From Candidatus Altimarinota bacterium (GTDB lineage Bacteria > Patescibacteriota > Gracilibacteria > UBA1369), in NCBI GenBank assembly GCA_041659405.1, contig JBAZYK010000003.1:60001-92000 (forward strand): DNA of 32,000 nucleotides, read 5' to 3'. This document shows positions 5,999-31,024 of the stretch, in pieces. Numbering within the stretch: position 1 is the first letter of the stretch; each line of letters starts with the position of its first letter. The translations under genes and the position numbers were made by a program. The notes below the pieces were generated by a model. That model did no database searches and was not told the origin of the DNA. It was given only the letters and a program-made list of their open reading frames with translations.

Positions 5999-6074
5999 GC
6001 TCAGGTTGTGAATACCTACTGAGCACATCCGGGGTAGGGGCCCTGTGTGCGAAGGAGGTATTCACAACCTGAGC
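5999..6074 (+). repeat. Long-stem hairpin element, copy 1 (fusA 5' UTR)
   Basis: 19-bp perfect arms GCTCAGGTTGTGAATACCT/AGGTATTCACAACCTGAGC, an A.G mismatch, tandem G.A, inner stem GCACA/TGTGC, and loop TCCGGGGTAGGGGCCCTG at 6028-6045. Confidence 0.9.
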
Positions 6075-9510: not shown

Positions 9511-9555
9511 GATCTCGCAAAGCGAGATCCGCGCCTGCCCCAAGCAGGCATAGCA
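9511..9555 (+). repeat. Two-hairpin module, copy a: GATCTCGC-AAA-GCGAGATC followed by CGCGCCTGCCCCAAGCAGGCATAGCA
   Basis: Begins directly after the tuf stop. The conserved second hairpin is GCCTGC/GCAGGC followed by ATAGCA. Confidence 0.8.
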
Positions 9556-9571
9556 AAAAAAATAACACAGT

Positions 9572-9649
9572 GTTCAGTTTGAGGAATATCTTCTGAACAC
9601 ATCCGGGGTAGGGGCCCTGTGTGTTCAGAAGATATTCCTCAAACTGAAC
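9572..9649 (+). repeat. Long-stem hairpin element, copy 2 (tuf|rpsJ)
   Basis: 30-bp perfect stem (GTTCAGTTTGAGGAATATCTTCTGAACACA and its complement); loop at 9602-9619. Confidence 0.92.
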
Positions 9650-12810: not shown

Positions 12811-12837
12811 AACATGCGCACTGAAAATTAGTCCTGT

Positions 12838-12915
12838 GTCCAGATTGTGGCATGTCATCTGAGCACAGCCGGGGTAGGGGCCCTGTGTGCGAAGAGGATA
12901 TGCCACAATCTGGAC
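12838..12915 (+). repeat. Long-stem hairpin element, copy 3 (rplB|rpsS)
   Basis: Arms GTCCAGATTGTGGCAT…/…ATGCCACAATCTGGAC with one G-U pair, one A.G mismatch and tandem G.A; loop GCCGGGGTAGGGGCCCTG at 12868-12885. Confidence 0.9.
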
Positions 12916-12946
12916 AAACAACACTAATTATTAATTACTAACAGAC

Positions 12947-13783: not shown

Positions 13784-13865
13784 GTGTTCAGTTTGTGGAA
13801 TGTTGGCTGAACATATCCGGGGTAGGGGCCCTGTATGTGAAGACAATATTCCACAAACTGAACAC
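13784..13865 (+). repeat. Long-stem hairpin element, copy 4 (rplV|rpsC)
   Basis: Arms GTGTTCAGTTTGTGGAATGTTG/CAATATTCCACAAACTGAACAC (one G-U pair), a G.A mismatch and tandem G.A; loop at 13816-13833. Confidence 0.9.
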
Positions 13866-15556: not shown

Positions 15557-15574
15557 GCAAAGCGAACGAGTGTC

Positions 15575-15601
15575 CGCGCCTGCCACCAAGCAGGCATAGC
15601 A
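15575..15601 (+). repeat. Two-hairpin module, copy b: conserved part CGCGCCTGCCACCAAGCAGGCATAGCA
   Basis: Preceded by an irregular hairpin (GACAC…GTGTC, 15546-15574) that spans the rpsQ stop codon. Confidence 0.8.
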
Positions 15602-15647
15602 ATTAAACATTTCGTGAAGCGAAATAACCTTATCTATAAAATAATAT

Positions 15648-16016: not shown

Positions 16017-16017
16017 C

Positions 16018-16061
16018 AGGCAAGCACAGCTTGCCCGCGCCTGCCACTAAGCAGGCATAGC
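16018..16061 (+). repeat. Two-hairpin module, copy c: GGCAAGC-ACA-GCTTGCC followed by CGCGCCTGCCACTAAGCAGGCATAGCA
   Basis: Begins 2 nt after the rplN stop; same architecture as copy a. Confidence 0.8.
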
Positions 16062-16116
16062 AGAAAACTATCCCGCAAGGGATATCAACCAAGAATTATT
16101 ATCAAAAAACTATTCT

Positions 16117-17326: not shown

Positions 17327-17420
17327 GAAATTTGAGCACAGCTCAAATTTCCTTCCGGCCTGAGCGAAGCGAAGAAACGCCGGAATAAAAATTAACATTC
17401 TGCCCTAAGCAGGCATAGCA
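17327..17420 (+). repeat. Hairpin series after rpsN: an 11-bp stem (17327-17351), TTCCGGC…GCCGGAA (17353-17385), and two-hairpin-module conserved part copy d, CTGCCCTAAGCAGGCATAGCA (17400-17420)
   Basis: Inverted repeats read directly. Copy d lacks the CGCGC prefix. Confidence 0.7.
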
Positions 17421-17483
17421 ATAAAGAATTAAAGGAAATTAAATTTATCAATAAACCTAAGTCATAAATCCTAAATTAAAATT

Positions 17484-17870: not shown

Positions 17871-17931
17871 CTTTGCTTCGCAAAGCAATCCGGCCTCTAC
17901 GCCGGATTAAAATAAAACATCGCGAAAGCGA
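17870..17931 (+). other. Three consecutive mini-hairpins after rpsH: GCTTTGC-TTC-GCAAAGC, AATCCGGC-CTCTAC-GCCGGATT, TCGC-GAAA-GCGA
   Basis: Perfect short inverted repeats. The last has a GNRA-type GAAA loop. Confidence 0.7.
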
Positions 17932-17983
17932 CACAATATCCAGCCAATTACACATTCAACTATTAATTACTAATTGAACCAAA

Positions 17984-18538: not shown

Positions 18539-18668
18539 CAGAGGCGACTGATGAGCTCATTGGCCATAGCTAAGTGAGCGCATGCGAACGAAGCTAACAT
18601 GGCCAAGAGAGCGAAGAAGAAGACTCAAATCTAAAAACAATCTAAATCTACAAGCAAATTAAACCACT

Positions 18669-19019: not shown

Positions 19020-19024
19020 ACCAA

Positions 19025-19059
19025 CAATTACTCATTATTAATTACTAATTACTAATTGA
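19025..19059 (+). repeat. Tandem heptamer leader, 5 units (CAATTAC TCATTAT TAATTAC TAATTAC TAATTGA), upstream of rpsE
   Basis: 7-nt periodicity ending 1 nt before the ATG. Confidence 0.9.
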
Positions 19060-19060
19060 A

Positions 19061-19804
19061 ATGGCAAAACCTCCATTTAACAGAAAAGGCCAAGCTCCAA
19101 TGCGCGAAGTAAAAGAGTTCGAAGAAGAGGTAATACAAATCGATCGTGTAACTCGCGTAGTTAAAGGAGGCCGCAGACTTCGTTTCCGCGCTACCGTTGT
19201 AATTGGTAACCGCAAAGGCAAAGTTGGCGTTGGTATCGGTAAATCAACTGAAGTTCAAGGCGCAATCAAAAAAGCTATCGCTCAAGCAAAGAAATCCCTG
19301 ATCGAAGTGCCAATGATTGGTCAAACCATTCCTCATCGTGTTGAGATGAAATTCAAGAGCGCTAAACTTATTATTATGCCAGCTCGTCCAGGTACTGGTA
19401 TCATTGCCGGTGGACCACTACGCAAGGTAATTGAACTTTCCGGAGTTAAAGATATTTTGAGCAAATGTTTAGGTGCAAAAAATCGTTTGAATAACAGCCA
19501 GGCGGCCATCAACGCTTTAGCGGAACTTAGAACAATGCCTTGGTTAAAGAAAAAAGTTGCTACTCCTGTTGCAGTCGCTCCAGGCGCACATGTCGCTCCA
19601 GTTGCACACGCTGTTCCAGGGACACACGTAAACACAGCTGCACACACAACTCCTGCACACGCCGCTCCGGTTGCACGCACTGCTCCAGTCGCACACACAA
19701 CTCCGGCACACGCTGCTCCAACTACACATCACGCTCCAGCTCCAGCTGCACATCCAGCTCCTAAAGCTCCTGTAGCTGATCCAGCTAAGAAAACTCAAGA
19801 GTAA
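19061..19804 (+). CDS. rpsE: 30S ribosomal protein S5 with a ~80-aa His/Ala/Pro/Thr repeat C-terminal extension
   Basis: …IDRVTRVVKGGRRLRFRATVVIGN… core. The tail starts around aa 165. Confidence 0.95.
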   Translation: MAKPPFNRKGQAPMREVKEFEEEVIQIDRVTRVVKGGRRLRFRATVVIGNRKGKVGVGIGKSTEVQGAIKKAIAQAKKSLIEVPMIGQTIPHRVEMKFKSAKLIIMPARPGTGIIAGGPLRKVIELSGVKDILSKCLGAKNRLNNSQAAINALAELRTMPWLKKKVATPVAVAPGAHVAPVAHAVPGTHVNTAAHTTPAHAAPVARTAPVAHTTPAHAAPTTHHAPAPAAHPAPKAPVADPAKKTQE

Positions 19805-20388: not shown

Positions 20389-21687
20389 ATGTATAAGTAC
20401 TTCGAACAAATCTGGAATTCCAAGGATCTTCGTTCCAAGATCCTTTTTACGATATTAATTCTGGTTGGATACCGCCTGATGGGCCAAATCACAATTCCCG
20501 GAGCAAACATTGAAGCTTTGCAGGTAATCTTCGCCAAGAATCAACTTCTGGGTATGTTCAGCTTATTAACTGGTGGAAGTGCTCACAATTTCTCCATCCT
20601 ATTAATGGGTCTTTCTCCTTACATCAATGCTTCAATCATCATGCAGCTTTTGACAGTTATCATTCCAAAGCTGGAAACCATGAGTAAAGAAGGTCAACAG
20701 GGCTCACGTAAAATCGCCCAATATACACGTTGGCTCACTTTACCTTTAGCGTTCATCCAATCTTATGGAATGATTTTACTTTTGAACTCTCAATCCCCTG
20801 TTCCAATTTTACAAAATCTCACTAATCCGGCAGTCATTTTGCCGGTTATGTTAACGGTAACTACTGGAAGCTTGCTCTTAATGTGGATGAGCGAACTTAT
20901 TACAGAACATGGAATCAGCAACGGAAGCTCACTGATCATCTTTGCAGGTATCATTGCCGGTATCCCTGAAGTGATTGGTCAAAGCATGGCACTATCTCAA
21001 CAATCAGCAGACAAATTGATTCCTTTTGTAATTATGATTTTAATTACATTGGTATTAACAATAGCAGTTATCCTTATAACAGAAGGTCAGCGCAATATTC
21101 CTGTTAGTTATGCCGGAAGAGGCGTTCGTGGCGCAAGTGAACATTCCAGTTTGCCAATCCGCATCAATCAAGCCGGAATGGTTCCAATTATCTTTGCTGT
21201 TTCTTTGATCAGTTTCCCTGGAATCGTAGCTCAATTTTTACAAAATTCGACAGTTGGCTGGTTAAAAGACACGGCCAGCTTTATTAATCTTTATTTCCAA
21301 TCAAGTGGGATTCCTTATCTTATCGCCTATTTTGTTTTAGTAATCGCCTTCACTTTCTTCTATGTGGGCATTACCTTCAATCCTGAACAGGTCGCGGAAA
21401 ACATCCAAAAACGCGGTGGTTATATTCCGGGCATCAGACCGGGCAAACAAACTTCCGAATATCTTGGTAAAATTTCCAATCATCTTAATTTATTTGGAGG
21501 TCTATTCATCGCTTTCATTGCCATTTCTCCAATTTTGATTCAGCTCATGTCCAGTCGTCTTTCTTTTGGAAGCGTACCAACACTCATTACCGGTGCCGGA
21601 CTAATCATCATCGTTGGTGTTGTTCTGGAAATCATCCGTTCAGTCAACGCACAATTGGTAATGCATGATTACAATAAACTATACTAA
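20389..21687 (+). CDS. secY: Preprotein translocase subunit SecY
   Basis: 10-TM pattern, …LGMFSLLTGGS…LMGLSPYINASIIMQLL…. Confidence 0.97.
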   Translation: MYKYFEQIWNSKDLRSKILFTILILVGYRLMGQITIPGANIEALQVIFAKNQLLGMFSLLTGGSAHNFSILLMGLSPYINASIIMQLLTVIIPKLETMSKEGQQGSRKIAQYTRWLTLPLAFIQSYGMILLLNSQSPVPILQNLTNPAVILPVMLTVTTGSLLLMWMSELITEHGISNGSSLIIFAGIIAGIPEVIGQSMALSQQSADKLIPFVIMILITLVLTIAVILITEGQRNIPVSYAGRGVRGASEHSSLPIRINQAGMVPIIFAVSLISFPGIVAQFLQNSTVGWLKDTASFINLYFQSSGIPYLIAYFVLVIAFTFFYVGITFNPEQVAENIQKRGGYIPGIRPGKQTSEYLGKISNHLNLFGGLFIAFIAISPILIQLMSSRLSFGSVPTLITGAGLIIIVGVVLEIIRSVNAQLVMHDYNKLY

Positions 21688-21689
21688 TA

Positions 21690-21771
21690 GAATTTAGGTT
21701 GGAATGCATGCTCTTCATGCACAGGGCCCCTACCCCGGATGCATTCAGATCACACATTCCAACCTAAATTC
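21690..21771 (-). repeat. Long-stem hairpin element, copy 5 (secY|adk), inverted orientation
   Basis: The loop appears as its reverse complement CAGGGCCCCTACCCCGGA at 21722-21739. Outer stem is 17 bp perfect. G-U and G.A mismatches form only when the minus strand is read. Confidence 0.9.
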
Positions 21772-21791
21772 ATATCATTAACTCAATTAAG

Positions 21792-22430
21792 GTGGATTTA
21801 GTTTTATTTGGAATTCAGGGCTCAGGGAAGGGTACGCTCGGCAAAGTACTCGCTGAAAAATATAATCTGCAGATTTTTGAAACAGGTTCCGCTTTAAGAA
21901 AACTTTCCCAGGAAACTACGCCACTTGCCCAAAAAGTTAAAAGCATTATTGAAGCCGGACATCTTGTTCCGACTGAAGTTGTCATGGAAATTATTGAAGA
22001 TTTCATGAATCACCTTCAACCGGGATCAAATGTTTTATTTGATGGAATTCCCAGAAAAATGGATCAGGCTGAAGCTTTTGATCAGCTCATGCAAAAACAC
22101 AACCGTAACTTTCTTGGACTTTTAATTGATGTATCTGAAGAAGTTGCGATTAAAAGACTTTCAACTCGCCGACTTTGCAAAAATTGCAAAACGGTTTTTC
22201 CTGCAACATACACACAAAACACCTGTGAAAAATGTGGAGGAGAATTGATTACCAGAACCGATGACAACCCGGAAAGTATCAAAATTCGTCTAAAGGCCTA
22301 TTTTGAAGAAACCATGCCGGTGATTGAAAATTACAAGAAAGGCAGTAAAATGATTTCGATTGATGGCACCGAAAATATTGAAAAAGTTCAGATTTTGGCT
22401 TTTGAAGCCCTTCAAGGAAAATTTAATTAA
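21792..22430 (+). CDS. adk: Adenylate kinase (GTG start; Zn-type lid CxxC…CxxC)
   Basis: GIQGSGKGT P-loop and CKNCKTVF…CEKCGGEL lid. Confidence 0.95.
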   Translation: MDLVLFGIQGSGKGTLGKVLAEKYNLQIFETGSALRKLSQETTPLAQKVKSIIEAGHLVPTEVVMEIIEDFMNHLQPGSNVLFDGIPRKMDQAEAFDQLMQKHNRNFLGLLIDVSEEVAIKRLSTRRLCKNCKTVFPATYTQNTCEKCGGELITRTDDNPESIKIRLKAYFEETMPVIENYKKGSKMISIDGTENIEKVQILAFEALQGKFN

Positions 22431-23868: not shown

Positions 23869-23885
23869 GAACTATAAAGGTAACT

Positions 23886-23965
23886 GTGTTCAGTTGTGGA
23901 ATGTTGGCTGAACATATCCGGGGCAGGGGCCCTGTGTGTGAAGACAATATCCCAGAACTGAACAC
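23886..23965 (+). repeat. Long-stem hairpin element, copy 6 (rpmJ|rpsM), partly decayed
   Basis: Same arms as copy 4 but with G.G and A.C mismatches. Loop variant TCCGGGGCAGGGGCCCTG at 23917-23934. Confidence 0.85.
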
Positions 23966-24404: not shown

Positions 24405-24482
24405 GTTCAGATTGTGGAATATTGGCTGAACACAGCCGGGGTAGGGGCCCTGTGTGTGAAGACAATATTCCACAATCTGAAC
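24405..24482 (+). repeat. Long-stem hairpin element, copy 7 (rpsM|rpsK)
   Basis: Arms GTTCAGATTGTGGAATATTG/CAATATTCCACAATCTGAAC, a G.A mismatch and tandem G.A; loop GCCGGGGTAGGGGCCCTG at 24435-24452. Confidence 0.9.
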
Positions 24483-24507
24483 CTACTAATTACTAATTAA
24501 CATAACC

Positions 24508-25691: not shown

Positions 25692-25773
25692 GTGTTCGGA
25701 TTTCTGTACGTTTTCTGAGCACATCCGGGGTAGGGGCCCTGTGTGCGAAGGAAATGTACAGAAATCTGGACAC
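25692..25773 (+). repeat. Long-stem hairpin element, copy 8 (rpsD|rpoA)
   Basis: Arms GTGTTCGGATTTCTGTACGTTTT/GAAATGTACAGAAATCTGGACAC with four G-U/U-G pairs on the + strand, plus tandem G.A; loop at 25724-25741. Confidence 0.9.
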
Positions 25774-25777
25774 TCAA

Positions 25778-25801
25778 CCATTACTAATTACTAATTACTA
25801 A
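25778..25801 (+). repeat. Tandem heptamer leader (CCATTAC TAATTAC TAATTAC TAA) upstream of rpoA
   Basis: 7-nt periodicity ending 13 nt before the ATG. Confidence 0.85.
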
Positions 25802-25814
25802 CCCCCTTTCTAGA

Positions 25815-26806: not shown

Positions 26807-26884
26807 GTTTGGATTGTGGAATGTTGGCTGAACACATCCGGGGTAGGGGCCCTGTGTGTGAAGACAATATTCCACAATCCAAAC
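26807..26884 (+). repeat. Long-stem hairpin element, copy 9 (rpoA|rplQ)
   Basis: Arms GTTTGGATTGTGGAATGTTG/CAATATTCCACAATCCAAAC. There is a compensatory CA>TG / TG>CA change relative to copies 4 and 7. Loop at 26837-26854. Confidence 0.9.
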
Positions 26885-30941: not shown

Positions 30942-31024
30942 GTGTTCAGGATTTTAGGAATTTTCCTGAATACATCCGCCGTTGCGCCCTGTGTATTCAG
31001 AAAAATTCTCAAAATCCTGAACAC
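30942..31024 (+). repeat. Long-stem hairpin element, copy 10 (upstream of trmD), with a diverged loop
   Basis: Termini GTGTTCAGG…CCTGAACAC as in the other copies, and inner stem CTGAATACA/TGTATTCAG. The loop is TCCGCCGTTGCGCCCTG (30975-30991), not the consensus. Confidence 0.8.

Follow-up and report, generated by a model that had tools for sequence, protein, structure and literature searches.

The stretch of DNA analysed here (the window, 32,000 nucleotides) lies in a genome of 1.51 Mb with 40% GC and 98.5% completeness, referred to below as G000, and carries the fusA-tuf-S10-spc-alpha ribosomal-protein supercluster, with gene identities assigned by Pfam. Judged by the relatives of its SecY, the genome belongs to Candidatus Peregrinibacteria/Peribacteria of the CPR. 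An inverted-repeat scan found hairpins of about 80 nt, with arms of 29-33 nt around a common 18-nt centre, at nine gene junctions of the window, and a tenth copy with one base of the centre changed was found at 23885-23965. Nine of these ten copies are sense relative to their genes; in the remaining one, between secY and adk, the centre is present as its reverse complement, as had been read from the letters in the original prediction. The features are listed below, where the strand given for a hairpin is its loop-sense strand and G001 is a second genome of the same genus.

5999-6074, + strand: family copy upstream of fusA
9572-9649, + strand: family copy at the tuf/rpsJ junction; stem perfectly paired, no tandem G.A
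12837-12916, + strand: family copy at the rplB/rpsS junction; not in G001
13784-13865, + strand: family copy at the rplV/rpsC junction; not in G001
20389-21687, + strand: secY (Pfam SecY, E = 2e-96)
21690-21771, - strand (loop-sense strand is the window minus strand): hairpin copy in the secY-adk spacer (inverted repeat I6, RNAfold, covariance model)
21722-21739, - strand: apical module (tip) of the secY-adk copy; UC bulge, 6-bp helix CGGGGU/GCCCUG, AGGG tetraloop
21772-21791, + strand: 20-nt A/T-rich tail from the hairpin to the adk start; no counterpart in G001
21792-22430, + strand: adk (Pfam ADK); start codon GTG, ATG in relatives
23885-23965, + strand: family copy at the rpmJ/rpsM junction; tip closing pair C-G, stem with one A.C and one G.G
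24405-24482, + strand: family copy at the rpsM/rpsK junction; not in G001
25692-25773, + strand: family copy at the rpsD/rpoA junction; four stem G.U; not in G001
26807-26884, + strand: family copy at the rpoA/rplQ junction; not in G001
30942-31024, + strand: family copy before trmD; variant 17-nt tip, two A.C mismatches (A.C, C.A)

The whole of G000 holds about 32 intergenic copies, comprising 28 matches to the tip with at most one mismatch and the variant-tip copies. Chimeric or truncated tandem copies, and tips exchanged on common stems, were found within the family. Two tandem pairs on contig C6 (C6:59032-59126 and C6:77315-77426) each have a second copy without most of the 5' arm, and their first copies are near-duplicates lying 18 kb apart; one of the truncated copies carries the main tip on the stem of the variant-tip copy at 30942, which implies that copies recombine or exchange tips. 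Alternative tips (CCGCCGUUGCGCCC, or CCGCAGC(A/G)AAGCGAGG) stand on a CUGA/GAAG scaffold at 30942-31024 of the window, at C18:4762-4843, C7:46389-46474 and C6:96178-96262 of G000 and at L111 and L119 of the relative G042, so that the scaffold is more widely common than any single tip.

Strand-specific folding of the hairpins

RNAfold, applied to the exact coordinates of the secY-adk copy, put the minus strand at -49.2 kcal/mol and the plus strand at -37.2 kcal/mol (-52.5 and -38.7 kcal/mol, respectively, with flanks included). In the minus-strand fold the stem has two G.U pairs, an isolated A.G and a G.A/A.G tandem, and the equivalent positions of the plus-strand fold are C.U, C.A/A.C and U.C/C.U. 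These are the imperfect positions that had been listed for the two strands by hand pairing, which was therefore right, and the energies do differ between strands under a formal fold. The same copy scored 86.9 bits on the minus strand with a covariance model, and its tip-proximal helix contains two compensated pairs.

The centre had been described as an 18-nt loop, and in this the description did not stand, as the nominal loop is itself structured, with a bulge of 2 nt and a helix of 6 bp, two of whose pairs are G.U, capped by an AGGG tetraloop. Together with its flanking bases this tip makes up 22 nt that are identical in most copies. Among relatives the closing pair of the tip covaries between U.G, U-A and C-G, which supports the 6-bp helix, and a tip G.U becomes G-C. 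In each copy the basal stem is variable and a box in the mid-stem is semi-conserved; a tandem G.A box of the sheared type (YUGA/GAAG) and the near-invariant apical mini-hairpin complete the structure. A 14-mer from the tip gave 62 exact matches in viral contigs, with only about five of them capping hairpins; these matches are weak evidence that the tip caps unrelated hairpins in phages, because it contains the self-complementary GGGGCCCC.

The strand preference was not confined to the secY-adk copy. The loop-sense strand was the more stable in 27 of 29 G000 copies with RNA parameters (mean -52.2 versus -43.2) and in 28 of 29 with DNA parameters, the copy at 30942-31024 being one of just two whose loop-sense strand is not more stable. 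The same held for 32 of 35 copies in ten related genomes belonging to nine other genera. As the invariant core is common by descent and contributes part of this energy asymmetry, only counts from the variable stems are independent evidence. When the arms of the G000 copies were paired without gaps, the stems contained 41 G.U cells against 6 A.C cells (binomial 2e-7); counted as distinct position/pair classes, which allows for shared descent, the figures were 23 and 6 (p = 0.002). Similarly, G.A cells numbered 60 against 5 C.U cells, and the stems of the 35 related-genome copies gave about 40 G.U against about 7 A.C. The stems were 96% paired, with double-sided changes in 24 of 31 pairs; none of 500 shuffles matched these pairing and double-change values, and slid controls were also far off. 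The proposal that the structure is kept on one specific strand, and not merely as a dsDNA palindrome, is thus supported by G.U far outnumbering A.C, in other genera too. The accompanying statement, that every non-Watson-Crick position in the nine plus-oriented window copies is G-U or G.A, was slightly overstated: it held for most copies, including the four wobble pairs at 25692-25773, with exceptions at 23885-23965 (A.C and G.G) and 30942-31024 (A.C and C.A).

These counts also bear on a DNA-level explanation, in which the tip or an extruded cruciform would serve as a docking site for a host or selfish DNA-binding protein or nuclease and the strand asymmetry would be a by-product of an asymmetric core sequence. 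Such a site would fit a tip identical over 22 nt beside varying stems, and would fit the two-base "palindrome-correcting" changes found in stems (GAAG to TCAG opposite CTGA), which look like the result of hairpin templating at the DNA level. However, the excess of G.U over A.C extends to the variable stems, where a duplex-binding site would not select it, the tip is not palindromic as a duplex and no associated gene was found, and we regard this explanation as improbable.

Gain and turnover of copies

G001 is collinear with G000 over the ribosomal-protein cluster, and comparison of the two genomes showed that the insertion at secY-adk (21688-21794) parted genes that lie 2 nt apart in the congener. 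The spacer measures 104 nt in G000, and its median is 19 nt over 69 relatives. No hairpin was present in G001 at any of the eight orthologous ribosomal-protein spacers compared that hold one in G000, and the site in G000 orthologous to the single copy of G001 is empty. No orthologous copy common to the two genomes exists, so all copies post-date the split of the congeners, by gain and turnover. A covariance model built from 26 copies and run against the genomes of relatives found no copy at the secY-adk junction in any of 80 secY loci, and only one of the 80 held a copy at all, at another junction. The same model found the family in 12 of 36 genomes of the GTDB family to which G000 belongs (16 copies in G017, 7 in G006 and 1-3 in the others) and gave no match among 128 genomes that represent 18 further families in the same order; within the GTDB family the distribution is patchy, at 0-32 copies per genome.

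The secY-adk hairpin is genuine, a flipped copy, specific to this species, of a small repeated hairpin, and these comparisons showed it to be an insertion, opposite in orientation to its neighbours in the ribosomal-protein cluster, that split the formerly adjacent secY and adk. Of the origins first proposed, a recent inverted insertion of a mobile copy was borne out as regards an inverted mobile insertion, given the 2-nt spacer in G001 and the lack of a copy at the junction across the 80 secY loci; "recent" applies only in the sense of later than the divergence from the congener. This copy is no fresh duplicate of another: its stem is unique, and just 42 nt round its tip resemble another copy, that after rpoC. 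As adk now starts at a GTG behind the 20-nt A/T-rich tail and the genes are separated, translational coupling of secY and adk was probably lost after the insertion. The same junction has been independently invaded by unrelated hairpins or palindromes in other Peregrinibacteria (L007, L014, L015, L036 and L045), that in L007 being a (CCAAATT)n palindrome.

At their borders, 0 of 27 copies had direct repeats of at least 3 nt that could represent a target-site duplication. Strain polymorphism was not seen, as three other contigs encoding an identical SecY have the same 104-nt spacer. We also considered that the stems might be made from target sequence at insertion; this was rejected, as a family consensus is common to the stems and the spacers of G001 are unlike them. 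The hairpins lie directly after stop codons and upstream of A/U-rich leaders, and since the A/T-rich (ACTAATT)n leaders downstream of them occur in both G000 and G001, these are native and lie outside the element.

Other features of the spacers were noted. Shine-Dalgarno motifs are almost absent from G000 (3.7% of genes), many genes being preceded instead by (ACTAATT)n leaders, for example at 19023-19063, 24483-24507 and 25774-25810, that recur at many loci of G001. Further multi-hairpin modules, none of them in G001, lie in ribosomal-protein spacers at 9511-9555, 15557-15647, 16017-16116, 17327-17483, 17871-17983 and 18539-18668; a GCCTGCC...AAGCAGGCATAGCA unit is common to several of them, and mini-hairpins of the GCGAAGC or GCAAAGC type occur in several. 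On its minus strand the module at 17871-17983 has a hairpin of the CCGGC-GTAG type, relatives of which lie on contigs C2, C5 and C10.

Orientation of copies relative to genes

With SecY and ADK confirmed by Pfam, the better-folding strand of the secY-adk copy is antisense to its operon, as originally predicted. The neighbours of the other G000 copies were taken from crude gene calls, with critical ones checked by Pfam. Of some 25 copies that lie between co-directional genes, about 9, or about a third, are antisense, and these are found at atpA-atpG, behind atpD, behind ftsA and again one gene beyond it, at ftsH-hsp20, in the recR/folE region, beside an M16 peptidase gene and between glycerate-kinase-like and dehydrogenase genes; two further copies face each other between convergent genes. 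The secY-adk copy is therefore unexceptional in being antisense. Copies that are antisense to genes keep the stem bias (18 G.U versus 1 A.C), so that the folded strand is set by the element and not by host transcription. Among 24 mapped copies in relatives, about 6 were sense and about 6 antisense between co-directional genes, and others lay between convergent genes.

Antisense transcription had been suggested as one possible meaning of this arrangement, and a dedicated antisense RNA running across 21771-21690 and regulating secY or adk would place the better-folding strand in the transcript. Nothing pointed to such a transcript: the three promoter-like matches in the region were not above shuffled sequence (mean 1.4), about ten other copies have the same orientation at unrelated loci, and the secY-adk copy is absent from all relatives examined. 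We consider a regulator of this kind very improbable.

The main rival is instead a host RNA function of the sense copies, in which the hairpin, with its tip and G.A box, would benefit the cell when transcribed in sense, by directing RNase III-type processing of the polycistronic mRNA, stabilising 3' ends or binding a protein, and antisense copies such as that at secY-adk would be by-products acting only as plain hairpins. The predominance of sense copies in the window is matched by that of most copies in ribosomal-protein, tuf, fusA and rpoC contexts, the position of copies just after stops and ahead of the native leaders would suit such a role, tolerance of G.U is typical of RNA, and the tip is invariant in nearly all copies. 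This rival must be set against the third of G000 copies that are antisense and still loop-sense-biased, the roughly 1:1 orientation in relatives, the lack of an orthologous copy even within the genus and the fact that most genomes of the GTDB family have no copy. Intrinsic terminators consist of a short GC-rich hairpin followed by a U-tract; the family was rejected as such, as it has no U-tract, its 3' flanks are not T-rich and no terminator-like sites were found. A search of Rfam gave no match at the gathering threshold, only miRNA-precursor noise far below it. On balance we judge a host RNA function unlikely, though the strongest of the competing explanations.

Known ssDNA transposons show an orientation bias relative to GC skew. 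In G000 the C-rich strand carries 24 of 32 copies; the copies are clustered, however, and the bias is not significant when clusters are counted (11 versus 6), so that a replication-strand bias was rejected. The ribosomal-protein supercluster itself is on the negative-GC-skew strand of its contig, C3, which is unusual if G-richness marks the leading strand.

Search for a mobilising enzyme and comparison with known elements

The original prediction had raised single-stranded DNA activity of the REP/RAYT or IS200 type. No Y1/RAYT, TnpB, IS110 or reverse transcriptase gene was found in G000, at its 98.5% completeness, and across 36 relatives the Y1 genes did not correlate with hairpin copy number: they occur in 8-9 of the 36 genomes but not in the copy-rich G017 and G006. 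A RAYT- or IS200-type activity was therefore not borne out, there being no TnpA gene in G000 and the Y1 transposases of relatives not tracking the hairpins. Hairpin copies were also seen on both flanks of a 627-aa ORF located 3' of ftsA (C5:74764-76647), which gave no Pfam match even at E = 1.

In behaviour the closest elements are the REP/REPIN sequences mobilised by RAYT in Pseudomonas, E. coli and others. Like these, the hairpins are short intergenic imperfect palindromes present in tens of copies that fold as single strands, make no target duplication, insert in either orientation, often just after stops, and are lineage-specific with high turnover. Yet two defining features fail. RAYT genes (Y1_Tnp, PF01797) are usually flanked by REPs and none is present in G000, and REPINs have conserved REP arms with a varying spacer, a pattern reversed here, where variable arms carry an invariant tip. 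The GTAG motif also lies inside the apical loop here and at the 5' foot in REPs. The subterminal hairpins of IS200/IS605 elements and PATEs are likewise strand-specific ssDNA hairpins without target duplication, recognised in that case by a transposase; unlike them, the present family has no TnpA or TnpB gene, shows no clear lagging-strand-template bias and consists of a single hairpin and not of two element ends.

Integron attC sites resemble the family in being folded single-strand sites in which asymmetric unpaired features choose the strand, and in which pairing is conserved while sequence varies. They differ in conserving basal R and L boxes and varying at the top, the opposite of these hairpins, and in forming the ends of cassettes served by an adjacent tyrosine recombinase, whereas the hairpins are dispersed singly and bound no cassettes. 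The two tyrosine recombinase genes of G000 lie on contigs C11 and C4, next to repeats that share nothing with the hairpin, and a link to the attC-like sites on C11 was rejected as they have no motif in common with it. Correia elements (CREE/NEMIS) and other DDE-type MITEs are also small, non-autonomous intergenic repeats that are co-transcribed as hairpins, but they have conserved terminal inverted repeats and a target-site duplication, whereas the present family makes no duplication and varies most at its termini.

Two further candidates were rejected. TIGR-Tas systems have tandem hairpin arrays in which the loops contain two variable spacers of 8-12 nt with box C/D motifs as their flanks (PMC12045711); the present copies are dispersed, with an invariant loop and no spacers. 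The CUGA/GAAG box resembles box D/C pairing but is without the 3-nt bulge of a K-turn. A full-text search of the literature returned no account of repeats like these from Patescibacteria or Peregrinibacteria.

Discussion

We interpret 21690-21771 as one copy of a lineage-restricted, non-autonomous mobile hairpin family of about 80 nt that acts in single-stranded form, probably as ssDNA, and give this reading a probability of roughly 0.6. Propagation of the family would proceed through one defined strand in single-stranded form, most likely as ssDNA; new copies would arise only from those that have kept the tip and have a good fold on this strand, and the tip would be a putative recognition site for a trans-acting factor. 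Propagation of this kind would explain why the stems tolerate G.U and G.A and are purged of A.C and C.U, why stem changes compensate one another, why the tip is identical and why copies may point either way with respect to genes. The lack of a reverse transcriptase gene in G000 favours ssDNA over RNA, and the palindrome-correcting changes argue in the same direction.

Several observations weigh against this reading. Selection by the host on each copy could account just as well for a 22-nt tip that is identical where the stems have diverged so far, and the enrichment of copies in highly expressed operons, where they are mostly sense, would also be explained by an RNA-level role. No mobilising enzyme was found in G000, no insertion or excision polymorphism was seen, and the orientation bias relative to GC skew was not significant. 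More tentatively, and less probably than mobility as such, the family may represent a previously undescribed kind of CPR mobile hairpin that uses a single DNA strand and is marked by a long stem, an invariant mini-hairpin and a tandem G.A box, with a mover that is not HUH/Y1, TnpB-associated, IS110 or reverse transcriptase.

If the single-strand reading is true, a REP-like selfish repeat spreads in ultra-small genomes that have no recognisable RAYT or IS200-type enzyme, which would point to a new mobilisation route and would make the 22-nt tip hairpin a bait for the enzyme. The insertions split tightly coupled essential genes, the secY-adk spacer having grown from 2 nt to 104 nt, and have put 80-nt hairpins into most gene junctions within the ribosomal-protein cluster, which makes them relevant to annotation and to models of how operons are expressed in CPR bacteria. 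The repeat behaves like selfish mobile DNA and not like an antisense regulator, and an "antisense" copy such as that between secY and adk should not be read as a regulator of the genes that it separates.
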